A stretch of DNA of 64,000 nt, from positions 2,772,145 to 2,836,144 of the forward strand of contig OZ245031.1 of NCBI GenBank assembly GCA_965223975.1, in the 5' to 3' direction. This document shows, one piece after another, positions 3,001 through 19,831 of the stretch. Source of the stretch: Pseudomonadales bacterium (GTDB lineage Bacteria; Pseudomonadota; Gammaproteobacteria; Pseudomonadales; JBECKS01). Under the pieces are notes generated by a model. It did not search any database, was not told where the DNA came from, and saw only the letters and a list, made by a program, of their open reading frames with translations. The position numbers and the translations under genes were made by a program. Each line of letters opens with the position of its first letter. Within the stretch, counting starts at the first letter, position 1.

Positions 3001-3551
3001 GGGTAAAAACTGGGTATGTTCCAGCGACCGCAAATAAACGCCGGATCAACTGGAGCGATGACTTTTTAGGATTCCTAAATGAAGCCGCCTCTGGCCAATA
3101 CATTGTCGGTAATGAGTTTAATGTCCAAATTAACACTCTGCCAACAGGCGTCAATATAAACGCGGCTATCTCGCCTTATGCAACCTTTTTAGAGTTGCAC
3201 TGTGCCGGTGGTATTCAAACACTGTCTAACTTTAACTACTCCGACGGCTATGACTTTAAATGGTCTTTGGAAGAGTGTGGAGACGTATCTTTACAGATTG
3301 ACATCGGACCGGTCAGCCTGCGTAAACACTACCGTGGAGTTAAGGGATTTAGTAAGTTCTTAGCGGACTTCCAAGATGGGCGACGGATCTTTACCGCAGA
3401 TGAATTTCCTAACCAAGCATCACAACTTAGCAATGAAAATGTGACGGCTATTGACGTCAACTATGAAATCTTTGGGCAAGAGCCTGTTATTCAGGTTCTC
3501 AATTCGGTGCCACTTGAGCCACCGAGAAACATAGCAGCCTGTTGGCCATAA
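93..3551 (+). CDS. tssM: T6SS membrane-complex protein TssM (IcmF family)
   Basis: 1152 aa. Two N-terminal TM helices, Walker A motif VIGKPRSGKST, a third TM near residues 415-435 (AISIGGGVTLLTLAVISILFG), then a long periplasmic IcmF-type region. Lies directly upstream of the sheath, hcp and baseplate genes. Confidence 0.9.
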   Translation: MLKKFLKFLMYALIIALISGLVIAVFILLGRPVEQAFIVLGALFGVYFSYLIGRKLYVRWRARSQVKRVINEGHPDEEDDLGMTPKELIGSLKSGWRSAIGSIKKSNLRLKGDPLYVLPWYMVIGKPRSGKSTALKNAKLLLPDIDIPKQGEGSTLNLDWWLYEQAIVLDTAGRYAVPDNTKRDKKEWGTLLSMLSRHKQKEPINGVVLVIAANRLLENTEDELMEEGRQVRASINELMEKLEVKVPVYLMITKCDLIEGFKDWSDYLPEESTLQAMGHLHEGELLNLDAHLDNIFDSIVDRMKELRILMLERSQSHNDTLLTLPSKLEGLRRGLHIFIGTALKENPYQDTPRFRGLFLSSSQYISDDKGELESRGLFLHEFFSRVLPADRDLLDSLPSAERLRRAVREYAISIGGGVTLLTLAVISILFGRDMATLNDIADSYPEINIEKQDVNQRLIELYTLRSLILDLQEAQDEWIIPWYGRLGYTPQVQQLTASYNGSVQEILNEALDEPLAKNMIDLQSSTSSIAGGLIRRINLLSTRLDPEQEESLEDKPPISPEYLVSVNEEISQESAGYFQELYVSYLQWHNNESELLEERAALQGAFVTLIKRNHGNYSWIIDWANQQGIQPVVLSDFWPGSIKLRDAPEIDAAFTKEGREFLNEFLAELEEANDDASRLSMVKSDFEEYYRREYVEAWVAFAERFDEGKLQLRNRKEWLTAVDIMSSRENPYFTFMGRMVRELEPLEHYDELEGSVMFEFFLEVQAFTGADVDSGGSNKQAAKMGLKLLGKMGKVGKALAKAGKQGMKANKKLNKGKKKGGVDLDSGIVDEASAVLDEYKAALSDAAFNSEAKSQSYSSISTLFETPDNPGGGNGPPAAAWNAIKKMQQLTGKPRPSTRLFWQLYSGPLSVVHDYMEQETNCQLQDRWESEVLAEVVGVSQNKLGEVLIGEGGLVWNFVENTASPFLNKRVKTGYVPATANKRRINWSDDFLGFLNEAASGQYIVGNEFNVQINTLPTGVNINAAISPYATFLELHCAGGIQTLSNFNYSDGYDFKWSLEECGDVSLQIDIGPVSLRKHYRGVKGFSKFLADFQDGRRIFTADEFPNQASQLSNENVTAIDVNYEIFGQEPVIQVLNSVPLEPPRNIAACWP

Positions 3552-3578
3552 GAGCGGTAGTTTTTAAGAGGAAATATT

Positions 3579-5354
3579 GTGGCAGATGATGTTCAACAAT
3601 TAGAAAGAGTTCGAATGATCTACAATTCGAGCGGCCCAAATGGGGACGAAGAGGTAGAATTACCTTTTCGTATCCTTGTGTTGGGCGATTTTACGAGCAA
3701 TGAGGCCTCAGAATACCTAGACCAACAGATGCCAGAAAACATTACCGAGGGTAACTTTAATTCGGTAATGAGAAAGCTTTCACCAGAATTGAACTTACAA
3801 GTTGATAACAAGCTATCGGAAAGTTCTGATCAGCCCTTCGTTTGCGAATTTGCGTTTCATTCCCTGAACGATTTCAGCCCCGAATATTTCATTAAACAGT
3901 CACCTGAGCTGCGTATCCTATGTGAACTTCGTCAGCAACTGATTGATATACGAGCTGATAACTCAGAGGTGTCATTAGATCGTTTCTTTGGTGGCGAAGT
4001 GGGTGGCTCTGTAGCCAGTGAGTTTTTGCTCAGCATGGGCATTAACGAAGGTGAAACAATTGACGAAGTGCTGCTCGATTCAAGTACCACTGAGCTAGAC
4101 GAATGTTTAAGCCGTCAGGTGGACGCTATTCTTCATCATCCGAAATTTCAAGCACTCGAATCAGCGTGGAGAAGTTTGCACTTTTTGGTATCTAGAGTGA
4201 ACTTCGAAGAAAATATTTTGGTAGAAATTTTAAATATCTCAAAGCAAGGCTTAGCCGAAAACTTTGAAGACGTTCCCGAAACTATTCAATCTGAGCTTTA
4301 TAAGATTATTTACAGTGAAGAATTTGGTCAATTTGGAGGTCGCCCTTATAGTTGTATGGTGGCCAATTATATTTTCTCACCGTCTGCTCCCGATATTTGG
4401 CTGCTCCAACAAATAGCGAGTGTCGCGGCCATGTCTCATTCGCCTTTTCTAGCGGCTGCTGGCCCTGAGTTTTTTGATATCGACAGTTTTTCTGGGCTCG
4501 CACGCTTACGCGATTTATCAGCAAACTTTGAGCAGCCTCGATTTGCTAAATGGAATAGCTTCCGAGAGAGTGAAGATGCACGTTACGTTTCCTTGTCTTT
4601 GCCAGGCTTTAAGCTTAGGAGTGATTATGGAAGCGATGGTAATCGAATCGGTGTCTTTGACTACCAAGAAAGAACATCCAAGAAAACCAAAGGTCTTTGG
4701 GGAAACGCGGCATTTGCATTCTGTTCTCGGCTAGTTGATAGCTTTGCTAAAACCCGCTGGTGCGTAAATGTGGTGGGTAAAGAGTATGGCAAGGTCGAAG
4801 GGCTACATATGTCCGAAGGTGGTGGCACAGCCACCTCAGATCGAAAAATTCCGACAGAGATATTAATTTCTGACAAGCGCGAAACGGAATTGGTTCGTTG
4901 GGGCTTTGTGCCTCTAACGGTCCATAAAGGCGATGATAGCGCGGCTTTTTACTCAGCGAACTCTGTTCAAGCTATTAAAGAGTTTCCAGATACGCCAGCT
5001 GGAAAGCAGTCTGCTATGAATCACCATTTGGGGTCGCAACTATCCTATTTATTTATTATTTCCAGATTGTCTCATTACATAAAAATGATGCAGAGAGAGC
5101 ATATAGGGTCTTGGAAAAATCGACATGACATCGAGCGTGAGTTGAGCGATTGGATTCGTCAGTATGTTGCAGACATGGATAACCCGACAGCGGGTGTTAG
5201 AGCACGTAGACCTTTAAGACATGCCAAAATTGCTGTTGAAGAGATAGAGGGTAAGGCAGGTTGGTACTTGATCGCCATGGCCGTTACGCCACACCTTAAG
5301 TACATGGGTTCTTACTTTACCTTAAAAGAAACTGGAAAGTTGGACAAAAATTAA
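3579..5354 (+). CDS. tssBC: T6SS contractile sheath protein, an apparent single-chain TssB-TssC fusion
   Basis: 591 aa, GTG start preceded by AAGAGG. Residues 1-125 follow the TssB/VipA pattern (ERVRMIYNSSGPNGDEEVELPFRILVLGDFTS; NFNSVMRKL; FHSLNDFSPEYFIKQSPELRILCELRQQL). Residues ~175-591 follow the TssC/VipB pattern (QVDAILHHPKFQALESAWRSLHFLV, then about 400 aa). The ORF is uninterrupted. Confidence 0.85.
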   Translation: MADDVQQLERVRMIYNSSGPNGDEEVELPFRILVLGDFTSNEASEYLDQQMPENITEGNFNSVMRKLSPELNLQVDNKLSESSDQPFVCEFAFHSLNDFSPEYFIKQSPELRILCELRQQLIDIRADNSEVSLDRFFGGEVGGSVASEFLLSMGINEGETIDEVLLDSSTTELDECLSRQVDAILHHPKFQALESAWRSLHFLVSRVNFEENILVEILNISKQGLAENFEDVPETIQSELYKIIYSEEFGQFGGRPYSCMVANYIFSPSAPDIWLLQQIASVAAMSHSPFLAAAGPEFFDIDSFSGLARLRDLSANFEQPRFAKWNSFRESEDARYVSLSLPGFKLRSDYGSDGNRIGVFDYQERTSKKTKGLWGNAAFAFCSRLVDSFAKTRWCVNVVGKEYGKVEGLHMSEGGGTATSDRKIPTEILISDKRETELVRWGFVPLTVHKGDDSAAFYSANSVQAIKEFPDTPAGKQSAMNHHLGSQLSYLFIISRLSHYIKMMQREHIGSWKNRHDIERELSDWIRQYVADMDNPTAGVRARRPLRHAKIAVEEIEGKAGWYLIAMAVTPHLKYMGSYFTLKETGKLDKN

Positions 5355-5440: not shown

Positions 5441-5926
5441 ATGCCAATACCCTGCCATTTAAGCATCGTCGGTGAACTTCAGGGTGATATCGAGGGTGAT
5501 TGTGAGTTTGAAGGCCGCGAGGGGACTATACTGGTTCAATCTGTCGATCATGTTGTAGAGATTCCAACCGATAGCCGTGGCGCGTCTACCGGGCGTCGTG
5601 TTCATCGCCCCTTAACGGTGACCAAAGAAATTGATTCATCGACACCGATGTTATACCAAGCCTTGTGCACAGGAGAACGTTTAACTGAAGTGACTCTAGA
5701 TTGGTATCGTATCGATGAGAGCGGCCTCGAGGAGCTTTACTACGTCGTCTATATGGAGAATGTCATTATTAATAGAGTTCGCCCCTGGATGCCCAATGCG
5801 CTTGATGGAAACAACTCTGGTATGAGGCATATGGAAGACGTTTCTTTTACCTATGAAAAGATCCGTTGGACTTGGGAGCTTGACGGTATTGAGTATGAAG
5901 ATGCTTGGGGAGAGATGTTCGAGTAA
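5441..5926 (+). CDS. hcp: T6SS inner tube protein Hcp (TssD)
   Basis: 161 aa. Hcp-family pattern (HRPLTVTKEIDSSTPMLYQALCTGERLTEVTLDWYR) and typical size. Good RBS. Positioned between the sheath gene and tssE. Confidence 0.9.
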   Translation: MPIPCHLSIVGELQGDIEGDCEFEGREGTILVQSVDHVVEIPTDSRGASTGRRVHRPLTVTKEIDSSTPMLYQALCTGERLTEVTLDWYRIDESGLEELYYVVYMENVIINRVRPWMPNALDGNNSGMRHMEDVSFTYEKIRWTWELDGIEYEDAWGEMFE

Positions 5927-5931
5927 GCCTT

Positions 5932-6354
5932 ATGTCTACGGAACGCCTATTAAAAAGAATTCGCACCTGGAGTGAAAATGAGGATGCTTCTAGCGAAGTT
6001 GATCTAGAAGCTTTTATAAACTCCGTGCTCGCTGATTTGGAAAAGGTGTACAACACCAGACAAGGTACGGTGGTAACCGATGAAAAGTTTGGCCTTCCTG
6101 ATTTCACCAGTTTAATGAATACAATGTCACCACCAGAAATCGAGGATTTAGGCGACAACATAGAAGATGCAACGATGAACTATGATCAACGAATTAAGAA
6201 TGCTATTTCGCGTTATCAAAAGCGAGAGGATGATATGGGCGTGGTTAGGTTTTCTATTACCGCTAAGCTTCAATTTCGAGATCAATTAATTCCTTTAAGT
6301 TATGACGCATTGCTACAGGGTGACGGTAGCGTAAGTATAAATCGAGCGTCTTAA
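5932..6354 (+). CDS. tssE: T6SS baseplate protein TssE (gp25-like)
   Basis: MSTERLLKRIR...SVLADLEKVYNTRQGT matches the TssE/GPW-gp25 pattern. The ORF track begins at a TTG at 5905 inside hcp. I prefer the in-frame ATG at 5932, just after the hcp stop. Confidence 0.85.
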   Translation: MSTERLLKRIRTWSENEDASSEVDLEAFINSVLADLEKVYNTRQGTVVTDEKFGLPDFTSLMNTMSPPEIEDLGDNIEDATMNYDQRIKNAISRYQKREDDMGVVRFSITAKLQFRDQLIPLSYDALLQGDGSVSINRAS

Positions 6355-6370: not shown

Positions 6371-8104
6371 ATGAATACTGAAAAATATCAAAATGAATTA
6401 AACAATCTGAGAGAGTTAGCCGTTGAGTTTGCAGAAAAGCACCCGGCCTTAGCGCCTCAACTCAGTGGTCCTAGCCCCGATCCTGATGTCGAACGCATTT
6501 TGGAGGGGGTCGCGTTTTTAACTGGTAATATTCGTCAACAGCTCGACGATGATTTTCCGGAGTTTGCTCAAGGCTTGATGCAAATGATTTTCCCACATTA
6601 TTTGCGACCATTGCCTTCGGCTACCATTATGGAGTTCAATCCCAAAAGCATTTTAAAAACCGCTTTAAATATCCCTAAAGGGACCATGATTGATTCGAAA
6701 GAAGTCGAAGGAGCTAGTTGTCGTTTTGGGACTTGTTATGATGTGGATATCGCTCCGGTTACCTTGTCAAACGTTTCTGTTAAAGAAGAAGGTGCAGGCA
6801 AGAAAGCGATTGAGTTAAATGTTAACTTAAACGGCATCGAGCTTCATGACTGGATTGATGATAGTCTAATTTTTTACTTAGGTGGTGACTTTGTTGGTGC
6901 CAGCGAACTGTTCTATCTTCTGAATCATCATTTATCGGGTATTGATTTAATAAGTAATGAAAGGCGCGTTGTACAGCTGGCGTCTTCATCGCTAGAGGCG
7001 ATTGGCTTCGATCGCGATAGCTCTATGATTCCTTTCCCAAAAAATGGATTTCCTGCGTATCGCATGGTTCAGGAATATTTTTTGTTTAAAGAAAAGTTCA
7101 TGTTCTTAAAAATTAAGGATTTAAAGAACTTTGAGACTAAGAGCCATTTTACACTTCGCTTTAATTTGACTGAGGTGAATATTAAACTCCCTCGAATCAG
7201 CGATGAGCGTTTTGTGCTCCACGCAACGCCTGCAATAAATTTGTTTGAAAAAAACGCAGAACCGATTAAATTGGATCTTCGTCATAGCGATATTAGAATT
7301 AAACCCGCTCAGAGCCGATCTAAGGGCGTGGAGTCGCAAGATCAGGTCTACTCCGTTGATTCGGTCATTGGGCATAATCGCAGGGCAGCAAAGGAGACTG
7401 AATATCACCCAATAGGTCTATTTCGTTCTCCCTTCGAAGATGAACCTGTTTCTCAAGTCACGTTTAAAACCAACGACGAAAGTGACGAAGTAGAGCCATA
7501 TGTGAGTATCCATTATCCCCCCGATTATGAATTTCAAGGATCAGAGACTTTATCTATTAAGCTCACCTGTACCAACGGGCATCTACCTTCTCAATTAAGA
7601 CCAGGCGATATATCCAGACCAACCAGCAGCACCTCTGACTTAGTCGAGTTTAAAAATATTAGCCGTCCGACAGCATTGCAACAACCACCCATGGATAGTG
7701 GCTTGTTATGGCGCTTGCTCTCTCACTTATCCCTCAACTATTTGTCCATAGCCGATGCTGAAAATTTAAAGGCCTTGTTAAACCTTTATATTTTCCCAAA
7801 TGGGAGTTCTGCCTTAGAAGAATCAATGAACCGAAAGCGCGTACAAGGCATTGTTGAAGTAGATGTTGTACCCGCAAACCGACTGGTAAAAGGATCATTA
7901 CTTCGCGGCCAAGATATTCGAATCAACCTAGACGGTAGTCATTATGCTAGTGTTGGCGATCTATATTTGTTTGCGACTTTACTTGAACAACTCTTTAATA
8001 GCTTTGCCAGCTTAAACTGTTATACAGCCACTCAGGTGACCGATGTTCATACGGGAGTTGAATATTCTTGGCCCGCGCGCATGGGAGGCAAACCATTAAT
8101 ATAG
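6371..8104 (+). CDS. tssF: T6SS baseplate protein TssF
   Basis: 577 aa. N-terminus YQNELNNLRELAVEFAEKHPALAPQL...DPDVERILEGVAFLTGNIRQQLDDDFPEF...PHYLRPLPS is the classic TssF signature. Confidence 0.9.
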   Translation: MNTEKYQNELNNLRELAVEFAEKHPALAPQLSGPSPDPDVERILEGVAFLTGNIRQQLDDDFPEFAQGLMQMIFPHYLRPLPSATIMEFNPKSILKTALNIPKGTMIDSKEVEGASCRFGTCYDVDIAPVTLSNVSVKEEGAGKKAIELNVNLNGIELHDWIDDSLIFYLGGDFVGASELFYLLNHHLSGIDLISNERRVVQLASSSLEAIGFDRDSSMIPFPKNGFPAYRMVQEYFLFKEKFMFLKIKDLKNFETKSHFTLRFNLTEVNIKLPRISDERFVLHATPAINLFEKNAEPIKLDLRHSDIRIKPAQSRSKGVESQDQVYSVDSVIGHNRRAAKETEYHPIGLFRSPFEDEPVSQVTFKTNDESDEVEPYVSIHYPPDYEFQGSETLSIKLTCTNGHLPSQLRPGDISRPTSSTSDLVEFKNISRPTALQQPPMDSGLLWRLLSHLSLNYLSIADAENLKALLNLYIFPNGSSALEESMNRKRVQGIVEVDVVPANRLVKGSLLRGQDIRINLDGSHYASVGDLYLFATLLEQLFNSFASLNCYTATQVTDVHTGVEYSWPARMGGKPLI

Positions 8105-9072
8105 AAGAGGAGCTATACGAATACGGCGAAGATTTTGATTTCTTCCAAGCCGTAAGACTTTTATCTCGTTTGCAAGTGCAAGCGGGAGAAGCCTCTTCGA
8201 CCTCAGAAGCCTTAAAAAAATTAAGAATTCACCCAGAGCTTAGTCTTGATTATCCAGATAGTGCCATAAGTTCTATCGAAGAAGATGAAAAAGGTGGTGC
8301 GGAGATAGTTACGACCTTTATGGGACTGTATGGTATTTCTTCCCCATTGCCTAATTTTTATACCGAAGAGCTTTTAGATGAAGAGTGGCATGAGCAAAAT
8401 GCCTCTAAAGACTTTTTAGATATCATTCATCATCATCTTTACCCTGTGCTTTTTGAAGCCTGGGAGAAGTATCGCTTTGGCTATCAAGCTGTAGAGCAAA
8501 AAAACCATAAGTATTGGGACGTATTATTTAGTTTGATAGGGCTTTCGGATCAAGAATTTAGAAGTCTAGCTAAAATGCCTGAGCGCTTTTTACCGTACCT
8601 TGGGATGCTTGCTCAGAGGCAAAAATCTGCCTTAGGATTGGAAACTATATTAAAAAATGTATTGAGTACCGATCTTATTGAAATCGAATCCAGTGTTTTG
8701 CGGCAGGTGCCGATACCGAAGGAGCAATTTTGTCGTTTAGGTGGAGCGCAACTGGGAGAGACCTCGGTTATTGGTGATAGCATAGAAGACCGCATGGGGT
8801 GTGCTCATATTCATATTGAAGGTATTACCCAGGAAAAATTTCACCAATTTTTGAATGACAAAGAGTTTATAGAATTCATTTGGCTGCTAATGGACTTTTA
8901 CTTAATAGAGCCAATCGAAATTGAACTCATTTTACATCTAACTGATGATACCGTTAAACCAGCTGTTTTAGGCCTAGGTGCCTGGTCCTCGTTAGGAAAA
9001 GACACTTGGTTGGACGGAAATCATCAACAGGTCACGCGAGTTGTATTAAGTCGTGAAGATTGTTTGCACTAA
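8068..9072 (+). CDS. tssG: T6SS baseplate protein TssG
   Basis: Has the FDFFQAVRLL motif near the N-terminus, typical size and position after tssF. The only in-frame start upstream of the motif is TTG at 8068, which overlaps tssF by 37 nt, so the start is uncertain. Confidence 0.85.
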   Translation: MARAHGRQTINIEEELYEYGEDFDFFQAVRLLSRLQVQAGEASSTSEALKKLRIHPELSLDYPDSAISSIEEDEKGGAEIVTTFMGLYGISSPLPNFYTEELLDEEWHEQNASKDFLDIIHHHLYPVLFEAWEKYRFGYQAVEQKNHKYWDVLFSLIGLSDQEFRSLAKMPERFLPYLGMLAQRQKSALGLETILKNVLSTDLIEIESSVLRQVPIPKEQFCRLGGAQLGETSVIGDSIEDRMGCAHIHIEGITQEKFHQFLNDKEFIEFIWLLMDFYLIEPIEIELILHLTDDTVKPAVLGLGAWSSLGKDTWLDGNHQQVTRVVLSREDCLH

Positions 9073-9102
9073 ATATAGAATCAGGCTATTTGGGTTAATC
9101 TT

Positions 9103-12039
9103 ATGAGTTATTTAGAAACTGCTAATTCCGCTAAATTCAGTTTGATTATTGAAGGGGTTTCAGAAACGCTCGGCTTGATCAGTTTTACTGGGCAAACAGC
9201 CATATCTTCCCTCTATTATTTTGATTTAATGTTGGTCAGCGACAACGAGGATTTAGAAGATCTCCCTGGATTATTTACCAGTAACGTCAGCATGATCTTT
9301 CACAAGGCGGAGGCTGATAAAGAGCACGAAGTTCACGGTGTGTTTTCAGAATTCGAGCAAATTAAGCAAACCCAATACGATGGTCGTAACTACACCTTAT
9401 ATAAGGCGAGAATGGTTCCTAAGCTATGGTGGCTGACTTTAAGTAAACGCAACCAGGTTTTTTTAGAAAAGTCCGTACCAGACATAATGACTGAAATTTT
9501 AGAAGACAGCGATTTAGCTTCTTCAGATTTTAACATGGCTGAGCTAGGGTCTTATGAGGACAACGATTACGTATGCCAGTTTAATGAAAGTCACTTTGAT
9601 TTTATTTCAAGATGGATGGAGCGAGAGGGCATTTATTACTATTTTGATCATGAGGCCGAAACCGAGCAGGTGATTTTTGTCGATACCTTGTCTTCACATG
9701 ACGAACCCTTTGATAAAGAGATTGCCTATAAGCCAGATCGTGACCTTAGTGATACAACCAAGAGCCGCTTTATCCAGACCTTTACTGGGCGACAAAAACA
9801 ATTGCCTCAAATGGTCTATCTCAAAGATTATAACCCCGAGCGTCCTTCACTCTACGTTGAGGCCTCAGCGACCGTAGATGAGATGGGGCGGGGTGAAGTA
9901 TATCTGTATGGTGATCACTTCGCCGATCCGGAAGAGGGTTCGCGTTTAGCGTTTATTCGAGCTGAACAAATGCTATCTGAGCAAAAGGAATTTTTTGGAG
10001 AAAGCACAGCAAGTGCGTTAGCTCCCGGATATATTTTTACTCTCGGGCGTCACTATCGAGACTCTTACAATGCTAAATACCTGGTAACTGAAGTAAGCCA
10101 TGAAGGGTCACAGGCTTCATGTATAAAGAGCGATATATTAACAGGGCTTGGACTTTCAGTAGAAGATGTACCGTATTCCAATAGTTTTAAGGCGATACCC
10201 GCCGACACCCAGTTTAGACCTAGGCAAAGCATTGAGCGGCCAAGAATTTCAGGCACATTAAATGCTAAAATTGATGCCGAAGGTGATGGTGCCATGGCCG
10301 AAGTCGATGAGTACGGGCGGTATAAAGTTAAACTACCTTTCACACAAACCGATGATATCCTAGACGGCAAGGCCTCAGCATGGCTTCGCATGATTCAACC
10401 TCACGCAGGCGAAAATCAAGGTATGCAATTTCCCTTAAGGAAAGGTACTGATGTGGTTGTGTCTTTTATAGATGGTCATCCAGATAGGCCAATTATTGCC
10501 GGCGCTGTAAATAACCCAGAAACCCCAGGGGTTGTTACTGCTGAAAACCATAATGTTGGATTTATAGCGACCGAAGACTTATTAGCTACCCGAGCCCTAG
10601 GTGGAGCACACCGTGATGTTGCTTCCAAAGGTCCTAGCTTTGACGGTGTTACTCCTTATGATGATTTTCGTCGCAATCATCAAACCAATTTTAGTGATGA
10701 CGATTGGCAGTTTCCAAAGCTCGACCCCATAGGCAAGGGCGCCGTTACACCGGGCGGTGATTACAATGCGCTTGAAGGTTTTATTGCGAATAACGCCGCT
10801 CCCGATAACGACGGTATTCCGGGCGAATATAGTGGCCAGTATCTGATTAAACGCGAATACGGTGATCAGTATTGTTGGGGAGATGGCAAAGTCTATAGCT
10901 GGGATAATCAACTGGCATTTACCTACGGTAATGATTATGAAGAAATTCACGAAATTGATGACCCTGAAACCGGTGAAGGATACAAACAACGTTTGCCACT
11001 AACCGTCGATGAGTCTGATAAGGATAGCGTTCTTAATGTAAATAATTTTGATCCAACGGGTCGTGAGGGGCATGACGGATATGATGATATTCATTACCCC
11101 GAATCCGTGTATGGAGTAGCTTATAACTCATTTAACGATGGTGAACCCTGGGAAGATGGAGGGAATGGCCTAACGGAAAAAAACTGGGGTGATAAAGTTG
11201 AATTCCATATGGGGCGTAGTTTTAATTTCAGTGGTGGTCCAGGGCCTGGCGGTTCCAATGAGGCTTACAACTATGGTAATGGCTACAGCGAGGACTTGTT
11301 AGAAAAAACCTACGGTAACTTCGCTCAACATTATGGCGATACTCGTCATGACCGAATATTTGCAGCTACTGCTCCAGTGACAATTAATGTCGGTATAGCT
11401 TCAATGTCTAAAGCAGCCGGTCATAGCTATTCCTATACACGCGGCGTTAGTTATGACGTGGTAGAGGATTTGGATGCGTATTCAGAAACCTATGGCGGTA
11501 CCAGCGAAGACTACGTTTATACTTCGATGGGTATACCCCGTTCCAAAACTGTTGAAAAGAACGATATGGGCATGACTGAAGAGACTATTTATGACGTCAC
11601 CTCAGGTATTCCTGTTTCATTTTCTACCGAATCTACCTCTGGCGGAGCTACTGCAAGCTTTAAAACCTCTATGGGTGCGGTTGCTGAGCTAGAAACTCGT
11701 CTAGCTGCAACCTCAACTACTGAAGTAAATGTCGGCGCAGTAATGAATATTGTGGCTAATGCTGGTGCATTCATGGATGTGTCGAGTACTTTAGGAGCCA
11801 TGGTAGAAGTTGGCACACATGTTGTTCACATCGAGGTGGATTCTGCACTGGGTGTAGAAATGAAATTTCCAGGTATGAAGGTGGCTCAAGACCCATTGGT
11901 TAAATTGGAGAATACCATTACAGCTATTCAAGCTGCGACTTGTACCATATCTTCTGAGTTAGCTGCGGTGGTCGCCAATGGTGTCGAAGTGACCACCACG
12001 CCGATTCAATTGAATACAGGAATGGATATCACCGTATGA
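9103..12039 (+). CDS. vgrG: T6SS spike protein VgrG (TssI) with an atypical long region after the gp5 OB-fold
   Basis: 978 aa. gp27-like N-terminal two-thirds and a gp5-like OB-fold (RYKVKLPFTQTDD...ASAWLRMIQPHAGENQGMQFPLRKGTDVVVSFIDGHPDRPIIAGAVNNPETP, ending near residue 475). Then ~330 aa rich in G/D/Y/N/E. Then ~170 aa with short beta-helix-like periodicity (EVNVGAVMNIVANAGAFMDVSSTLGAMVEVGTHVVHIEVDSALGVEM). Confidence 0.9.
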   Translation: MSYLETANSAKFSLIIEGVSETLGLISFTGQTAISSLYYFDLMLVSDNEDLEDLPGLFTSNVSMIFHKAEADKEHEVHGVFSEFEQIKQTQYDGRNYTLYKARMVPKLWWLTLSKRNQVFLEKSVPDIMTEILEDSDLASSDFNMAELGSYEDNDYVCQFNESHFDFISRWMEREGIYYYFDHEAETEQVIFVDTLSSHDEPFDKEIAYKPDRDLSDTTKSRFIQTFTGRQKQLPQMVYLKDYNPERPSLYVEASATVDEMGRGEVYLYGDHFADPEEGSRLAFIRAEQMLSEQKEFFGESTASALAPGYIFTLGRHYRDSYNAKYLVTEVSHEGSQASCIKSDILTGLGLSVEDVPYSNSFKAIPADTQFRPRQSIERPRISGTLNAKIDAEGDGAMAEVDEYGRYKVKLPFTQTDDILDGKASAWLRMIQPHAGENQGMQFPLRKGTDVVVSFIDGHPDRPIIAGAVNNPETPGVVTAENHNVGFIATEDLLATRALGGAHRDVASKGPSFDGVTPYDDFRRNHQTNFSDDDWQFPKLDPIGKGAVTPGGDYNALEGFIANNAAPDNDGIPGEYSGQYLIKREYGDQYCWGDGKVYSWDNQLAFTYGNDYEEIHEIDDPETGEGYKQRLPLTVDESDKDSVLNVNNFDPTGREGHDGYDDIHYPESVYGVAYNSFNDGEPWEDGGNGLTEKNWGDKVEFHMGRSFNFSGGPGPGGSNEAYNYGNGYSEDLLEKTYGNFAQHYGDTRHDRIFAATAPVTINVGIASMSKAAGHSYSYTRGVSYDVVEDLDAYSETYGGTSEDYVYTSMGIPRSKTVEKNDMGMTEETIYDVTSGIPVSFSTESTSGGATASFKTSMGAVAELETRLAATSTTEVNVGAVMNIVANAGAFMDVSSTLGAMVEVGTHVVHIEVDSALGVEMKFPGMKVAQDPLVKLENTITAIQAATCTISSELAAVVANGVEVTTTPIQLNTGMDITV

Positions 12040-14885
12040 TCGATGTCATCGCGCCTATGCAGATACTGCCGATGAAAACGGTGGTAGAGCGGGACAATAC
12101 CTTCCATTTAATTATGTCTGCTACGCTGGGCATTGATTTAAGTAATAACAATGCGCTGCTTTCTTTTGACTACATAAAAGATGCTTTAGAGAGCATGGAT
12201 AGGCCGCCGATGCTGGATATGGGTATGCCTAAACCACACGGTGAATTTATGGTTTCCGGTAAATTCTTTGCCCCAAACCAGCAGGCAGTAGACGCTGGTG
12301 AGGTCAAAGTATGTATCGGTGACCAGCAAAAAAGTCTCTATGTATTTGGCCCTCGCTCTTGGCAAGCTGGGTTTCCTTCGAAACCTGAACCCATCGAGTC
12401 CTTACTTCTAGATTATCAGTTCGCGATGGGCGGCGATAACTACCCAGAAAACCCAGAGGGCATGGGGTATGAGCAGGAGCAGCTGCCTCAAATTGAATAC
12501 CCTAATCAGCTAGTAGATTCGCCAAAAGCACAAGTCTCACCGGCGGGCTTAAGTGCCATCGATATTACCAACCCCCAGCGCGCACAATATCATGGAACCT
12601 ATGACGGCCAGTATTTAGAGAAATATTTCCCCGGCTATCCTGCAGATATGGATTGGCGAATGTTTATGTGTACGCCACCTGATCAATGGTCAAAGGGATT
12701 TTATAATGGTGATGAGAAATTTTCCTTACATAATATGCATCCAAACGAAGCACTTATCGAGGGCCAATTACCATCATTGAAAACACGCTGTTTTCTCCGC
12801 AGCAAGCCCGGTGTGGCGCAACAGTCTAATATTCAAGAAATCCCCATGAACCTCGATACTGTGTGGTTTTTTCCAGAAGTCAAAATTGCTTTATTGATTG
12901 CTCGGGGTGGTATTGAAATAAATGACGATGAAGGAGATGACTTCGATACCGTACTGTTTGCGTATGAACGACACGATGAGGTTCGCAGTCCTGATTATTA
13001 TAAAGAGGCGATGGACCTTCGCTTGGATACCAAGGATCGATTGCTTTATAACCTCTGCACTCATGACCTAATTCCAAGCGATCATAAGTCAGCTATGGAG
13101 ACCCTACAATTGATGGGGGAAGAATCAGCTGATAATAGTGAATTCTCGAAAAACCTAGCCCATAAAACGGAGTCCATCCAAAATGAGGTGGATGAAAAGG
13201 TAGAAAAGGCTCTTAAACAAAGCGAAGAGCAAATGGCAGCGGCAAATATCGGTGAAGAACATAAACCGGATATTCGGGCAATCCTTAAGGAACCTAAAAC
13301 CGATCCCGAAATTGAGGCATTAAATGCCAAACTAGAGAAAATATTGCCCGGTATAACTGGTAAAGATGGCAAGAGCTTGGAGTTAAAAAACCTAACCAGC
13401 GCAAAGATTGAAGAGGTCATTCAGACCAGTAAAGAATTCTCTGATAAAAAAAATGAAGAAGCTCAACAAATGATAAGGGAAGAGCTTCTTAAGATTCGTC
13501 AGGAGCTGAAAGACCAGTTGAAGATGGAATTGCCAGAGGAAAGCAAAAAATCCCTGGAGCAGGCACTTACAGTCATAGAAGGTATGCTAGAAAGTGAGCC
13601 GCCTCCTACAGAGTTGCCAAGAGTTGATTCTCAAGCTTTAATTGATCGTTTTCAGCAAGCATCTCCAGAGAGTATGCAGTACATGCAGCAAATTGCCTTG
13701 ATGCGGGCCTCGGGTGGAGATGAAAAAGCCATTTCGGTGCTCGAAAAGCAATTAAAAGATCTCGAGGACTTTAAAGAGAATGAAATGAAAACGGCGCTAA
13801 TAGAGGCCGAAAAAACCTTTAAGGATGGATATTTAAAGGGCGCTCATTATACAGCTAAAGGGCTATCTCCCCACGAAGATGACGCAACGGTGCGTGGCCA
13901 GCTGATAAAAAAAATTAGTTTGAGAGAGGATGTCAGTCAACAAGACTGGGCTTGTTTAGACTTAAGTGCTCAAGATTTAGCTGGAGTGGATTTTAGCGGT
14001 TGTTATTTGGAACAAGTTGATTTTAGCGGAGCCGACCTAAGCGGAGCAAATTTTAGCCAAGCAAACCTAGCAAGAGCTAAGCTAGAAAATGCAAATTGTA
14101 TCGGCGCCAATTTTGAGGGTGCCAATCTGGGCGCAGTATTAGGAAACGGTTGTAACTTTACAGACGCGACTCTTCACGAGGCGCAACTCAATTTAAGCGA
14201 TTTTCAGAATTCAAACTTTACGCGAGCGAAACTTGATCTGGCGTTAATCCTAGAGATTAATGTAGACGGCGCGAATTTTAGCGAGGCCCAATTAGAAAAA
14301 GTACAGTTCTTAGATATCGAATTGAATGATGTTGATTTCTCAAATGCTAATCTTGTTAGTGCAGTGTTTATTAATTGCATAATTAACCGGGTCAATTTTA
14401 GCGGAGCTAAAGCATCTAGCACTATATGGACCAATATTCCTTTTACTGATGTTAAGTTTGATGATGCTGATATTACCTCAGCGTGCTTTGCACCCTCTGA
14501 AGAAGGCAAGACTTCGATGGAGTCGGTTAGTTTAGTAAGAGCTATAATGGACAAGAGTAATTTCCAGGGGATGCCCATGCAGTCGTGTGACCTGACTGAA
14601 GCGTCAATGGAAAATGCAATAATGATGGAAGCTGATTTAAAAGGCGCAAATCTTACTGGCATTAAGGCGAAGGGCGCATCTTTTCGAAAAGCATCTTTAG
14701 AAAATGCTCTTTTAAAAAACGCCGACCTAAGGGATGGTATTCTTTCTAAAGCGAATTTGGTGGGCGCTAATTTTGTGGGCGCTAATTTGTTTAGAGCCGA
14801 TCTAATCCGATCTTCTATGAAAAACACCGATTTTCTTGCAAGTAACCTTGATGCCACCCTGATTAAAGACTGGAGGCCCTCATGA
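12036..14885 (+). CDS. DUF2169-like N-terminal domain + Glu/Lys-rich coiled-coil + pentapeptide-repeat C-terminal domain (TagAB-like T6SS accessory protein)
   Basis: 949 aa. The ATG overlaps the vgrG stop (ATGA). The first ~330 aa resemble the DUF2169 proteins found after vgrG genes. Residues ~340-620 are EK-rich and helical. From nt ~13950 there are tandem A(D/N)LxX pentapeptide repeats (DFSGADLSGANFSQANLARAKLENANCIGANFEGANLGAV...). Confidence 0.8.
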   Translation: MIDVIAPMQILPMKTVVERDNTFHLIMSATLGIDLSNNNALLSFDYIKDALESMDRPPMLDMGMPKPHGEFMVSGKFFAPNQQAVDAGEVKVCIGDQQKSLYVFGPRSWQAGFPSKPEPIESLLLDYQFAMGGDNYPENPEGMGYEQEQLPQIEYPNQLVDSPKAQVSPAGLSAIDITNPQRAQYHGTYDGQYLEKYFPGYPADMDWRMFMCTPPDQWSKGFYNGDEKFSLHNMHPNEALIEGQLPSLKTRCFLRSKPGVAQQSNIQEIPMNLDTVWFFPEVKIALLIARGGIEINDDEGDDFDTVLFAYERHDEVRSPDYYKEAMDLRLDTKDRLLYNLCTHDLIPSDHKSAMETLQLMGEESADNSEFSKNLAHKTESIQNEVDEKVEKALKQSEEQMAAANIGEEHKPDIRAILKEPKTDPEIEALNAKLEKILPGITGKDGKSLELKNLTSAKIEEVIQTSKEFSDKKNEEAQQMIREELLKIRQELKDQLKMELPEESKKSLEQALTVIEGMLESEPPPTELPRVDSQALIDRFQQASPESMQYMQQIALMRASGGDEKAISVLEKQLKDLEDFKENEMKTALIEAEKTFKDGYLKGAHYTAKGLSPHEDDATVRGQLIKKISLREDVSQQDWACLDLSAQDLAGVDFSGCYLEQVDFSGADLSGANFSQANLARAKLENANCIGANFEGANLGAVLGNGCNFTDATLHEAQLNLSDFQNSNFTRAKLDLALILEINVDGANFSEAQLEKVQFLDIELNDVDFSNANLVSAVFINCIINRVNFSGAKASSTIWTNIPFTDVKFDDADITSACFAPSEEGKTSMESVSLVRAIMDKSNFQGMPMQSCDLTEASMENAIMMEADLKGANLTGIKAKGASFRKASLENALLKNADLRDGILSKANLVGANFVGANLFRADLIRSSMKNTDFLASNLDATLIKDWRPS

Positions 14886-15934
14886 ATAGTGCTGAGCTTT
14901 CAAGGCTGGTTAAAACGGGGGAACTGTTTAGTGGCAATGACTTCTCAGGCCTGGATTGCCGAGAGGTTGATCTGTCGGGCGCGGTGTTTTCTGAGGTCAA
15001 CTTTGATCGATGCGATTTTTCAGCTGCGAATTTGGTCGACGCGACATTTAACATGTGCAGTATCAAAGGAGCTGTGTTCGATAATAGTCAGCTTAAATCG
15101 GCTAATTTTGTTGGCTGTCAGGGGGCGGAAAGCAGTTTTGATCAAGCCGACTTAGAAAAAACTAAGTTCGTTCAGTCTGAATTGATCGATGCTCGATTTT
15201 CTAATACTCGCTTGATCCAGACAACCTTTGTTGAGTCGAATCTGTGCCGTATAGATTTAAGTGATAGCTACATTGAAGCGGCTCCATTTACAGACTCAGA
15301 TCTTACCGGTATCCAATTTAAGCAAACTGAATGCGTCAAAGTGGTATTCTATCAATGTCTTTTCAAAGATATCGATTTGTCACAGTGCCGTTTTGAGCTT
15401 TGCGGCTTTATAAAATCGGATTTAAGTGGTTTGGATTTTTCTGGCTTGGATTTGTGCCAGAGTCAATTCATCGAAAGCCAGGTAAAAGCCTGCGACTTTT
15501 CAAACTGTGAATTAAAACAAGGTGGGTTTATGGCTGCCGATTTGGAGTCGTCAAACTTTGACAATACAAACCTTGAAACAGCTAACTTTTATGAGGCGAA
15601 TCTAACCAAAGCTAGTATGAAAAACGCGAACTTAACAATGGCTAGCCTGCAGAAAGCTACTATCGATTTTGCTAATTTGGCATGGGCGAAGTTAGAAAGG
15701 GCGCAAATGGAAGAAGTTAAAATAAATGTATCAATTTTTTCTAATGTTGATTTGACCTACGCTGATTTATCGCATGCAAGAATTATTGATAGTGATTTTT
15801 CTGGTGCTTCAATGAGCAATACTAATATGCATGAAGTACTAGAGGATAAAAATATTTGGGACGGCGCAACCAAGCCCTTGTCTTGGCCAACCGATGAAGA
15901 GAGAAAAAAAGCAGAAACCTGGGGTGCGAAATGA
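14882..15934 (+). CDS. Pentapeptide-repeat protein (TagB-like)
   Basis: 350 aa, almost entirely pentapeptide repeats (DLSGAVFSEVNFDRCDFSAANLVDATFNMCSIKGAVFDNSQLKSANF...). ATGA overlap with the upstream gene. Confidence 0.85.
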   Translation: MNSAELSRLVKTGELFSGNDFSGLDCREVDLSGAVFSEVNFDRCDFSAANLVDATFNMCSIKGAVFDNSQLKSANFVGCQGAESSFDQADLEKTKFVQSELIDARFSNTRLIQTTFVESNLCRIDLSDSYIEAAPFTDSDLTGIQFKQTECVKVVFYQCLFKDIDLSQCRFELCGFIKSDLSGLDFSGLDLCQSQFIESQVKACDFSNCELKQGGFMAADLESSNFDNTNLETANFYEANLTKASMKNANLTMASLQKATIDFANLAWAKLERAQMEEVKINVSIFSNVDLTYADLSHARIIDSDFSGASMSNTNMHEVLEDKNIWDGATKPLSWPTDEERKKAETWGAK

Positions 15935-16608
15935 GTATTGAGTCTGCAAAAGTAATCGCTTTGGAAAGTAAATCGCTAGAAACTACTGGCGTTAAACTCG
16001 AACAAACTAAAGTCGGTCAAACTAATAATCTAAAAGAAGTAATTATTAATTTGGAAGGTGAGGAAAAGACAGCAAAGGTATCATTCAGCTGTTTGGTTGC
16101 TCCTCAGGTAAACGATAGCGTACTGATAGCAAGCAACGAAAAAGGTGAATATTTTGTGCTTAGTATTCTCGAACGTAGTGAAAGTTCACAGGAAATGACG
16201 CTGGCATTTCCAGATACAGCGAATTTAGTAAGCGCTAGTGGGGCGATTAATTTACTTTCGACAGAGAGTATTTCTATGACTACTCAAAGTTTAAACTCAG
16301 TTGCCCATAATAGTGTTTATAAATCTGCACAGACTATTGTTGATTTTGAGGAACTGACTGCAAAGGGGAAAAGCGCCACGGTAAGTATCCCTAATATGAG
16401 GATTCTAGCCGATAATATCAGCACTGTTGCCAAACAAGCGGTTCAAAAATTTGCAAACTACGTTAGACGAACAGAATCTTTTGATAAAGTTCAGGCAGGC
16501 CAAATGAATAGGAATGTCGATGGACTTTTTTCGGTAGATACAAAATATACAGTTATGTTGAGTGATAAAGATACTAAGATCGATGCCGAACGCATCCACA
16601 TGGGCTAG
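15931..16608 (+). CDS. Hypothetical T6SS-associated protein, probably DUF3540 family (TagC-like)
   Basis: 225 aa. ATGA overlap with the upstream pentapeptide gene. Size, position between the pentapeptide and DUF4150 genes, and the pattern AKVSFSCLVAPQVNDSVLIASNEKGEYFVLSILER fit my recollection of DUF3540. Not verified. Confidence 0.6.
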   Translation: MSIESAKVIALESKSLETTGVKLEQTKVGQTNNLKEVIINLEGEEKTAKVSFSCLVAPQVNDSVLIASNEKGEYFVLSILERSESSQEMTLAFPDTANLVSASGAINLLSTESISMTTQSLNSVAHNSVYKSAQTIVDFEELTAKGKSATVSIPNMRILADNISTVAKQAVQKFANYVRRTESFDKVQAGQMNRNVDGLFSVDTKYTVMLSDKDTKIDAERIHMG

Positions 16609-16617
16609 GAGAGAACT

Positions 16618-17028
16618 ATGTTTGCCAACAGTCAATTGATGAGTTTAAACCTTGGCTTTCCCGATGTGTGTTTAACGCCCACGCCAGCAGGTCCAATCCC
16701 GGCACCCTATCCAAACATTGCAGTTGGAACGATTGCAATACCACCTACTGCATCTCTTAAGAATTTACTGACCATGATGCCTGCTCACAACATGGTCACC
16801 ACCATTCCGATCAGCAACGGTAATGAAGCGGGGTGTAGTCCAGGAGGAGTCGCCTCTGGAATGTTTATTGGGCCCGGTAGGCACTTGATGGGTAGTTTTA
16901 AGGTGATGTTTGCGGGTACGCCAGCAACTAGGGCTTTAACAGACAGCACCTTGCAAAACTCAACTAATGTTCCAGGTGCCGGTAGAAACCTATTACCCTC
17001 GCAGTTCAAGGTAATCTGTTGTCTTTAA
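16618..17028 (+). CDS. PAAR-like spike-tip protein (DUF4150 family), no toxin extension
   Basis: 136 aa. The N-terminus LGFPDVCLTPTPAGPIPAPYPNIAVGT matches the DUF4150 signature (PDVC.TP....P.PYPN). The protein ends shortly after the core domain. Confidence 0.8.
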   Translation: MFANSQLMSLNLGFPDVCLTPTPAGPIPAPYPNIAVGTIAIPPTASLKNLLTMMPAHNMVTTIPISNGNEAGCSPGGVASGMFIGPGRHLMGSFKVMFAGTPATRALTDSTLQNSTNVPGAGRNLLPSQFKVICCL

Positions 17029-17052: not shown

Positions 17053-17349
17053 ATGTCAGAGCACGCACCACAAAATGAAAAACGCAGTGTACAGGTTCAT
17101 GTTTCTCCAGAGCTAGAGTACAGCTTTCGAGACGTGGCTAATATCTTTGTCGGGCCTAAGGCAAGTGAAGTCGTCTTTGAGTTTGGTAATACCCACCTGT
17201 CTTTGCCAGGAAATATTACTATCTCGAATCGAATTGTAATGTCCTTTGCAGATGCTTGCGAATTGCAACAACGCCTAGGAAAGACCTTAGCTGAAGCACA
17301 ACAGAAGCTACAAGCTCAATTGGCAGCACAAGCGGAGCAAAATAAATAG
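17053..17349 (+). CDS. Small hypothetical protein, DUF3467-like
   Basis: 98 aa, last gene of the co-directional block. The pattern YSFRDVANIFVGPKASEVVFEFG...ISNRIVMSFADACELQQRL resembles DUF3467. The C-terminus is a Q/A-rich helix. Confidence 0.55.
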   Translation: MSEHAPQNEKRSVQVHVSPELEYSFRDVANIFVGPKASEVVFEFGNTHLSLPGNITISNRIVMSFADACELQQRLGKTLAEAQQKLQAQLAAQAEQNK

Positions 17350-18750: not shown

Positions 18751-19012
18751 GGGACACCTTCCTTTACGCTCGCTTTAGAGCAGCTCATTATTATTTTATC
18801 TGCAACAGTTAAGTATACTAACGTGTTTAGTTGAATAGGCACAACTCCAAGTAGCCATGTATTGCAGCTACCTCTGCATCAATAAGCTAACCCTAGTTTG
18901 TAGAGGCTTACGAACCGCCACAATCAGCCCTAGAGGATCATCTGAACGTCGATCTATGGGTAACACGATGTTATAGTGCTTGAGTATCATTATATTTAGT
19001 AAGGTTTTTAAA

Positions 19013-19831
19013 ATGAATGACAGTCGAACCTGGATAGCCTCTATTCTATTCCTAGATATTGTGGGCTATAGCAAGCTCCCGATAGACCACCAAGTAGAGA
19101 TCAAAAACCACTTCTTGCAGGCAATCTCAAAGAATACAGAAGGTGTAGCGTTTGAAGAAAGTATTCGAATTGATACGGGTGATGGCATGGCTATCTGCTC
19201 GGTAGGTGATCCCGAGTCTATGTTTCCTGTCGCTAAAGATCTTTGCCACTTTTTCTTTCAGGGCGATCCTAATTTCCCTCATGATTACGGGGTAAGGCTT
19301 GGTCTAAACCTTGGGCCCATTAAGCTTGTAGAAGATATTAATGGCAAAAAGAACTGCCTGGGGGCTGGTATTAATGACGCTCAGCGTGTGATGGATTTTG
19401 CCGCTAGCAACCAATTGCTCGTATCGGAGTCTTATTACGAAGTGGTATCTAAAATTTCCAATAGTTACGCTGAAGACCTTTTGTTGCTAGGAAAGCGTTT
19501 TGATAAGCACGACAAGGAATTTATGGTGTACAGCTTTAAACATGGCGCGCAAGAAGAGCTGCAAGAACCTAGTGAACAACCCCTAAATGCTTCGTTAGGA
19601 GAAGTATCCGACGCAAGTTTTGAGATAGATAGTGGTGTAGAAGATCATTTGAAGAAACAGCTTGCTAGCTGTATCGGTTCTTCAAAAGCTGACGAAGTAT
19701 TTAATCTTTGTAAAAGTAAGAGCAGTTCGTTGAAAGATCTTTGTGATCAGCTTAGCGCAAGTATAGAGCGTTCGGATGATCGAGATAGTTTTGATCAGTT
19801 CACTAAATCTTACGGTTATTCAGGCTACTAG
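19013..19831 (+). CDS. Class III adenylate/guanylate cyclase catalytic-domain protein with an uncharacterised ~90-aa C-terminal tail
   Basis: Cyclase motifs ILFLDIVGYSKL (metal Asp), IRIDTGDGMAIC (second metal Asp), RLGLNLGPIKLV and LGAGINDAQRV (Asn/Arg). The ORF track starts at TTG 18980. I prefer the in-frame ATG at 19013 (MNDSRTWIASILFLDIVGYS). Confidence 0.8.
   Translation: MNDSRTWIASILFLDIVGYSKLPIDHQVEIKNHFLQAISKNTEGVAFEESIRIDTGDGMAICSVGDPESMFPVAKDLCHFFFQGDPNFPHDYGVRLGLNLGPIKLVEDINGKKNCLGAGINDAQRVMDFAASNQLLVSESYYEVVSKISNSYAEDLLLLGKRFDKHDKEFMVYSFKHGAQEELQEPSEQPLNASLGEVSDASFEIDSGVEDHLKKQLASCIGSSKADEVFNLCKSKSSSLKDLCDQLSASIERSDDRDSFDQFTKSYGYSGY

Follow-up and report, generated by a model that had tools for sequence, protein, structure and literature searches.

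A conserved aromatic-repeat insertion in the VgrG spike of a Class III Tvp-type secretion locus from a Pseudomonadales bacterium

What does a VgrG spike protein of 978 residues carry beyond the conserved core of its family? The question is raised by the vgrG (tssI) gene of a type VI secretion system (T6SS) cluster in a Pseudomonadales bacterium, which lies at 9103..12039 on the + strand of the window, our name for the whole 64,000-nucleotide stretch analyzed here (GenBank assembly GCA_965223975.1, contig OZ245031.1, positions 2,772,145 to 2,836,144 of the forward strand). The open reading frame (ORF) is complete including its stop codon, and its product is a VgrG/TssI spike: it matches TIGR03361 of NCBIfam over residues 14-474 (325.8 bits against a cut-off of 186, E 4e-97) and, in Pfam, Phage_GPD (PF05954) over residues 33-337 (229.5 bits, E 7e-68) and Phage_base_V (PF04717) over residues 405-468 (38.8 bits, E 1e-9). 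All 14 PDB sequences that match the protein do so within residues ~10-493, the VgrG chains with E 1e-46; those among them that are solved canonical VgrGs have lengths of 643-667 aa. The gp27-like hub, the gp5 OB-fold and a short conserved segment behind it account together for residues 1-507 (9103..10623, +). Beyond residue ~493 there is no Pfam, NCBIfam or PDB match, including any toxin or enzyme domain; neither canonical post-OB beta-prism family, PF13296 (T6SS_Vgr) or PF10106 (DUF2345), is matched, nor is any Pfam family at E<=10 over residues 458-978.

A sequence-only reading of this gene, whose feature began at nucleotide 10513 (residue 471), had proposed that the OB-fold is separated from a terminal beta-helix-like segment, itself ending in an Ala/Val/Thr-rich tail, by an acidic insertion of ~330 aa with much Gly, Asp, Tyr and Asn. 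Much of this description is borne out. The conserved motif that it placed near residue 475 is GHPDRPIIAGAVNNPETP at residues 458-475, the three peptides it quoted are present, acidic residues outnumber basic ones 58 to 22 over residues 476-810 (G 13.4, D 10.4, Y 7.8, N 6.9 %), and residues 811-978 are composed of T 13.7, V 13.1 and A 11.3 %. The insertion is also genuine, although its size is not ~330 aa, as comparison with VgrGs of the same kind of locus makes clear.

The window locus has the gene content of a Class III Tvp locus, that is, of DUF2169 synteny type C. Its vgrG is followed by tvpAB, tvpB, tvpC and a gene for a DUF4150 PAAR-like spike cap, corresponding to the TvpAB, TvpB, TvpC and Paar1 that work with VgrG1 in the Class III Tvp system of Serratia marcescens Db10 (Monlezun, Earl & Coulthurst 2026, PMC13373197); synteny type C denotes the same four-gene cassette, for which a dependence between DUF2169 and DUF4150 proteins is reported (Sachar et al. 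2025, PMC11883445). By way of DUF4150 homologues of the window PAAR-like protein, we found four loci in which an ordinary Class III VgrG is encoded directly upstream of the same cassette: Viridibacterium curvum (L017, 745 aa), a hydrothermal-vent metagenome assembly (L019, record MNBD_GAMMA15, 719 aa), Roseomonas (L020, 724 aa) and a metagenome contig (L022, 875 aa), all of them with Gp5_trimer_C. These four match the profile hidden Markov model (HMM) of the C-terminal part (CTD) of the window family in two pieces, with domain E-values of 5.5e-11 to 1e-5. One piece covers HMM positions 1-58, equivalent to residues 458-527 of the window protein, and the other positions ~265-430, equivalent to residues ~788-971; a profile of the core between them, comprising the modules R1 to R3 described below, gives no match to any of the four (E 0.3-1.2). 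As the ordinary proteins match only on either side, the true insertion extends over residues ~528-787 and is ~260 aa long relative to VgrGs of the same cassette. It comprises a first variable loop, R1, a second loop, R2, a linker and the first half of R3.

Along the protein, all on the + strand, the parts follow one another in this way. The acidic loop 1 (residues 508-577, 10624..10833) is variable, with an alignment occupancy of 0.13-0.85 and a mean BLOSUM score of about 0 or below. It leads into R1 (residues 578-620, 10834..10962; YGDQYCWGDGKVYSWDNQLAFTYGNDYEEIHE), a conserved block, and R1 into a second variable acidic loop (residues 621-687, 10963..11163) of low occupancy and conservation, which in the window VgrG exceeds the length found in most relatives. 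R2 (residues 688-737, 11164..11313; EKNWGDKVEFHMGRSFNFSGGPGPGGSNEAYNYGNGYSEDLLE) is the best conserved block of the family and is joined by a semi-conserved linker (residues 738-766, 11314..11400) to R3 (residues 767-806, 11401..11520), whose repeat match and octad register in relatives mark it as the probable first turns of a gp5-type beta-helix. The remainder (residues 807-978, 11521..12036) appears from profile matches and periodicity to be a degenerate distal beta-prism with the C-terminal tail, presumed to form the tip on which the PAAR-like cap docks.

Conservation follows this division. Across ~35 relatives residues 578-617, 688-737 and 768-807 are well conserved, with some invariant columns (H616, W698, G699, Y724 and G728 are invariant), despite an overall identity of only ~21-43 %, and residues 508-577 and 618-687 vary in length and show little conservation. 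The family motifs are RRYGDxYxWxDGNxYxWDN...FGNDYEEIHE for R1, EKxWGDKxEYHxGRxFNWSGGxGPGGS...YNYGNGYTENLLE for R2 and EKTxGxxYSYxxGxS for R3. Because the three blocks are kept across the relatives, the region as a whole does not count as a poorly conserved linker, even though two stretches within it do. The sequence-only reading had named conservation among orthologues as a check and had allowed that the region might prove to be a degenerate beta-helix or a poorly conserved linker. The outcome is mixed: the blocks do resemble gp5-type turns and the two loops do vary, but R1, R2 and R3 behave as conserved modules. As to hydrophobicity, RIFAATAPVTINVGIAS (residues 752-768) is the sole mildly hydrophobic stretch of the insert, and the Kyte-Doolittle 19-residue mean reaches its maximum of 1.09 near residue 760. 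This is no more than a mild counterpart of the Gly/Ala/Val-rich hydrophobic stretches (such as GIAGGVGAAVGAGLGAIAP and GAGVGGAAAIGGVALVAF) seen in several relatives and in one ordinary Class III VgrG, which recall membrane-active peptides; they occur in L018 at ~4100-4340, in the upstream ORF of L010, in the L022 VgrG at residues ~770-800 and in the R2-R3 linker of the family sequences P0028 and P0032.

The three blocks are also related to each other. The region had been described as having no obvious repeat, and obvious the repeats indeed are not, yet profile-profile comparison detects three diverged units of ~40 aa: hhalign aligns R1 with R2 at a probability of 97.9 % (E 5e-13), R2 with R3 at 95.3 % (E 2e-8), R1 with R3 at 88.9 % (E 2e-6) and R3 with the following helix at 83.8 %. 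At the start of each come turns that read [WYF]-G-[DN]-x-[YF]-x-[YFW]-x, which are 8-residue units with Gly at position 2 and alternating aromatics, and the period-8 signal of G, N and D in R1 lies above that of 99 % of shuffled sequences (p ~0.01). In relatives an unbroken octad register runs from R3 onward, in which 13-15 of 17 consecutive octads have G as their second residue. Relatives also carry Pfam Gp5_trimer_C directly after R3 (33.0 bits against a cut-off of 30.9 in family sequence P0017), and distant relatives show a weak match to PF13296 (T6SS_Vgr) directly after the OB-fold. The distal 110 residues alternate in hydrophobicity with the period of 2 typical of beta structure (mean Z 3.55, n=54 family sequences) and the last 45 residues of family sequences with a period of ~2.3, and from this alternation the Ala/Val/Thr-rich tail would be part of a beta-prism rather than a transmembrane helix. 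Periodicity and profile matches favor beta structure throughout the post-OB region.

To assess how widespread the module is, we took residues 476-978 through an exhaustive HMMER search of 1.84 billion protein cluster representatives at a threshold of E<=1e-3. It returned 36 representatives, one of which is the window protein itself, and 18 of the 36 lie at E<=1e-10; the closest relative is 45 % identical (E 2e-82). Every full-length match is a VgrG of 817-1052 aa matched in its C-terminal part, and the other nine representatives that we looked up are all metagenomic. Scans with an alignment of eight sequences found six loci among 185,579 species genomes, all in records of metagenome-assembled genomes (MAGs), five labeled Gammaproteobacteria and one Ectothiorhodospiraceae, and ten loci in JGI metagenomes. 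The genome scan with the single window CTD had no match, and neither had tblastn against plasmids. Word-indexed protein searches, whether started from the CTD alone or from a core alignment of 20 sequences, came back empty although the collection contains family sequences, which we take as a limit of the search method. A PDB profile search with the insert core likewise found nothing at E<=10. The insert is a rare domain family, not described before and absent from Pfam and from solved structures, within a secretion system that is itself known.

The genomic surroundings of the family are constant. In all 15 related loci with enough flanking sequence (L001-L015, some of them redundant), the CTD-bearing vgrG adjoins tvpAB-tvpB-tvpC-PAAR-like. 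In L003 (a MAG locus; 1644-2753) the gene is followed by those for a pentapeptide protein, TvpC and the PAAR-like protein, with no adjoining DUF2169 part, and in L005 and L010 the cassette lies upstream of the CTD-bearing vgrG. L010 has a single Tvp cassette flanked by two CTD-type spike genes that differ in subtype. The upstream one (1-895), cut by the edge of the locus, preserves the C-terminal ~300 aa with a tail like that of P0027, and the downstream one (6396-9029) resembles P0007. This arrangement suggests alternative spikes that share one chaperone set.

The post-OB part is moreover a separable unit, which occurs fused to VgrG, as the next ORF, or behind the PAAR-like gene. In L021 (a Desulfobacterales MAG) a 493-aa VgrG (1410-2891) stops just after the OB-fold, and the core is carried by the next ORF, of 391 aa and with its own start codon (2930-4105; core profile E 2e-18). 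In L024 a 532-aa VgrG (1535-3133) also stops just after the OB-fold; the cassette follows, and behind its PAAR-like gene stands a 508-aa stand-alone CTD (7955-9481) with a good ribosome-binding site. L023 has the order tvpC, PAAR-like gene and a stand-alone CTD of 418 aa (935-2191). Functional modules typically move in this way between a fused and a free state, and the finding agrees both with a split spike, whose truncated VgrG would be completed by a CTD trimer, and with a cargo-like payload.

We regard it as reasonably probable, though by no means assured, that the insert is a separable, beta-helix-derived extension of a Class III Tvp-dependent spike capped by a DUF4150 PAAR-like protein. 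Since the module is conserved and forms a separate gene in some relatives, it is probably an extension of the spike or a payload rather than a floppy linker. In the trimer, R1-R3 would continue the intertwined beta-prism and so produce a longer shaft carrying the acidic loops, and residues ~788-978 would form the distal prism, whose tip would receive the DUF4150 cap when the TvpC pre-complex passes it on, as happens in Serratia. Serratia VgrG1 and Burkholderia VgrG-5 suggest, by analogy, that the extended spike might itself be the payload, with the envelope of the target as its site of action.

Several observations weigh against this picture. The R1 and R2 profiles have no direct match to the profile of the distal helix. 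The distal V/G periodicity proposed by the sequence-only reading is clear as an 8-residue register in relatives, but in the window VgrG itself it is largely lost (G at position 2 in 2 of 17 octads). Compared pairwise with the Viridibacterium VgrG, the window protein is significantly similar over residues 7-473 alone (E 5e-46), and its tail resembles an ordinary VgrG tail at the profile level only, the pairwise similarity not being significant (E 3.0). AlphaFold2 (AF2) gave no usable three-dimensional model: a monomer prediction of residues 458-978 from a 35-sequence alignment has a mean predicted local distance difference test score (pLDDT) of 47.6, with very low confidence across residues 476-736 and 10-residue block means of ~57-85 at residues ~737-857 only, all of them beta strands, and the insert core alone came out without structure (mean pLDDT 42.7). 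We therefore infer the continuation of the prism through R1 and R2 from sequence alone. When the protein is an intertwined trimer and its alignment shallow, a monomer prediction is not expected to succeed, and the low pLDDT therefore speaks neither for nor against a prism. Finally, there is no immunity-like gene, toxin domain or transmembrane segment, and it is by analogy only that the extended spike may be given an effector role.

The main alternative, possible if doubtful, is that the insert is a pure structural spacer with no activity of its own, which only lengthens or stiffens the shaft, for example to suit the geometry of envelope or baseplate. The likeness of the R1-R3 modules to beta-helix turns and the lack of any catalytic or toxin family match agree with a spacer, and long beta-prisms that lack recognizable effector domains are a known feature of Class III Tvp spikes (PMC13373197). 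However, the aromatic, His and Glu positions of the R1 and R2 motifs are conserved more strongly than is usual for ordinary helix turns, the module shifts among fused, split and post-PAAR positions as cargo does, and the long Serratia VgrG1 has itself been linked to toxicity (PMC13373197). At the other extreme, the post-OB module could be a new portable class of T6SS payload acting on target membranes or surfaces, delivered fused to VgrG or as a separate trimer that completes a truncated VgrG, and an environmental counterpart of the VgrG-5 CTD and of VgrG1 toxicity; we consider this stronger proposal unlikely, though tenable, and if it were true, the lack of a neighboring immunity gene would be a hint that the targets are not kin and possibly eukaryotic. 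The sequence-only reading had likewise thought of an evolved VgrG with an internal effector or adhesin-like domain, an idea that the separability of the module fits, whereas no effector, adhesin or enzyme family match was obtained. A ligand-binding or adhesin-like function, in which beta-hairpin repeats rich in aromatic, Gly, Asp and Asn residues would bind a carbohydrate or another ligand on the target surface in the style of cell-wall-binding or CROP repeats, seems improbable to us. The composition (Y 7.8 %, G 13.4 %, D+N 17.3 %) and the alternating aromatic positions of R1 and R2 would suit it, and the repeats presumably resemble choline-binding and glucan-binding repeats. Nevertheless, no Rhs/YD-repeat, cell-wall-binding or CROP repeat, lectin or carbohydrate-binding family is matched in Pfam at E<=10, none is found among the PDB sequences, and Foldseek with the low-confidence CTD model has no PDB match at E<=0.001, the best reaching E 0.04 and those to YD-repeat shells and OspA being non-significant (E >= 0.04).

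Two further explanations fare worse. The sequence-only reading had suggested that the insert might be a docking platform for the DUF2169 and pentapeptide proteins encoded downstream, and strict gene linkage, translational coupling with tvpAB and the co-purification of TvpAB and TvpB with Serratia VgrG1 (PMC13373197) lend this some appeal. We nonetheless disfavor it and give it only a slight chance, because ordinary VgrGs of 719-875 aa use the same cassette without the insert and because TvpAB and TvpB, in the published models, surround the distal tip and its PAAR-like cap rather than the proximal shaft (PMC13373197); the cassette of L024 even follows a VgrG without any post-OB part. That the region is a low-complexity disordered linker with no specific role we consider highly improbable. 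Its biased composition, the very low AF2 confidence across most of it and the poorly conserved loops would agree with disorder, and for the two loops this may hold, but for the repeat blocks it is contradicted by their conservation among divergent relatives and by family E-values that go down to 2e-82.

The genes around vgrG complete the picture of the locus. Upstream, on the + strand, Pfam matches identify TssM (93-3551), a fused TssB-TssC (VipA/VipB) of 591 aa (3579-5354), Hcp (5441-5926), TssF (6371-8104) and TssG (8068-9072), and a TssE-sized ORF (5905-6354) is assigned by position alone. The same upstream order is found in L001, L002, L008 and L011. The TssB-TssC fusion is kept in these related clusters (2778-4559 in L001) and occurs also in the hydrothermal-vent locus L019 (1323-2840, 505 aa). 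Downstream and again on the + strand, the cassette encodes a 949-aa TvpAB/TagAB homologue with DUF2169 and pentapeptide repeats (12036..14885; Pfam DUF2169 E 4e-64, Pentapeptide E 2e-45), a 350-aa pentapeptide-repeat protein that is a TvpB/TagB homologue by family match (14882..15934), a 225-aa TvpC/TagC homologue (15931..16608; Pfam DUF3540 E 5e-40) and the 136-aa PAAR-like (DUF4150/'PIPY') spike cap (16618..17028; Pfam Tox-PAAR-like E 2e-29). The translational coupling that had been noted is seen in the 4-nt ATGA by which the tvpAB start at 12036 overlaps the vgrG stop, and the next two junctions overlap by 4 nt likewise. Among the matches listed for it, the PAAR-like protein shares 56-66 % identity with DUF4150 proteins of numerous loci and phyla.

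Behind the PAAR-like gene lies a DUF3467-like ORF of 98 aa (17053..17349, +; Pfam DUF3467 E 2e-4, below the curated cut-off). An ORF of this kind (~98 aa) follows the PAAR-like gene also in L010 (6003-6242, 54 % identity) and L021 (9264-9560), and it may be a further accessory gene of the insert-bearing subclass. We noticed that TvpC homologues all end in ...D.KIDAERIHMG and, by eye, that most family VgrGs end in a similar pattern of hydrophobic-x-hydrophobic-Gly/Ser (QMLG, KLLG, VIFG), which could be a strand contacting the PAAR-like cap. BLASTP and hhalign found no similarity between TvpC and VgrG, however, and we gave up the notion of a detectable homology between the TvpC prism and the tip of the spike. 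A 283-aa ORF at 18980-19831 (+) has no Pfam match at E<=0.001; we take its N-terminal FLDIVGYSKL to resemble a class III nucleotide cyclase. Scans of the window for Rfam families and tRNAs gave no match.

The harm that Class III Tvp-dependent spikes do to their targets awaits a mechanistic explanation. Serratia VgrG1 depolarizes cells, Burkholderia VgrG-5 makes host cells fuse, and for both the C-terminal part of the spike itself is implicated. The loci described here are natural experiments on this point, in that the same cassette serves a spike with an extra module or a truncated spike with the module as a separate protein. Of all leads, these split and stand-alone forms promise most, and the sharply conserved motifs are directly mutable. 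Even if the insert were only a spacer, it would remain a clear case of spike length varied by duplication of helix turns.

Among known systems, that of Serratia VgrG1 has the same downstream genes in the same order (DUF2169-pentapeptide, pentapeptide, DUF3540, DUF4150) and a VgrG with an unusually long post-OB region without a recognizable effector domain, as is reported of Class III VgrGs and their unusually long beta-prisms in general (PMC13373197). There, VgrG1 replaces the TvpC of the pre-complex, TvpC mimicking VgrG through an OB-fold and beta-prism of its own, and the immunity protein Vai1 has as its sole partner VgrG1, which is linked to membrane depolarization (PMC13373197). Serratia VgrG1 differs in its length of 786 aa, compared with 978 aa in the window, and in the Vai1 gene between vgrG and tvpAB, of which the window has no equivalent. 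In L017 (5239-5598) and L019 (5191-5568) a protein of 119-125 aa with an N-terminal hydrophobic or transmembrane helix is encoded at the vai1 position. No gene lies between vgrG and tvpAB in any member of the insert-bearing family examined, but as Roseomonas and L022 lack one too, this is only a weak hint as to target range. The four ordinary Class III VgrGs share with the window protein, at the profile level, a homologous distal prism and tail and differ in lacking the ~260-aa aromatic-repeat insert.

VgrG-5 of Burkholderia pseudomallei and B. thailandensis, with a length of ~1000 aa, has a C-terminal extension of unknown fold, and in both clusters the extended VgrG is the sole candidate payload. 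In T6SS-5 the same cassette, tagAB-5, tagB-5 and tagC-5 together with tagD-5, comes directly after vgrG-5 with no immunity gene between, and the VgrG-5 CTD is needed for the fusion of host cells and has been described as unique to Burkholderia (PMC6335564). On a homology of the two CTDs the evidence is indirect and negative: besides that description, none of the 36 exhaustive-search matches has a Burkholderia-like GC-rich composition (fraction of Gly+Ala+Arg+Pro, GARP, <= 0.29). No Burkholderia DUF4150 entry is among the 120 matches listed for the window PAAR-like protein. The clusters differ further in that T6SS-5 has separate tssB and tssC genes and clpV before vgrG, whereas TssB and TssC are fused in the window.

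Two more distant parallels concern the architecture of the spike. Phage T4 gp5 has an OB-fold, an inserted module and a C-terminal trimeric beta-helix in the same order, and the inserted module of gp5 is its lysozyme domain; the window insert, in contrast, matches no enzyme family and looks derived from the beta-helix. Evolved VgrGs such as Vibrio cholerae VgrG-1, with its ACD, and VgrG-3 differ in bearing the effector after a complete beta-prism, whereas the window insert, which has no effector family match, stands before the distal prism of a protein that would end in a cap-docking tip. They too, however, carry extra sequence beyond the gp27/gp5 core, and their effector domains are often stand-alone genes beside spike genes, just as the CTD module is here.

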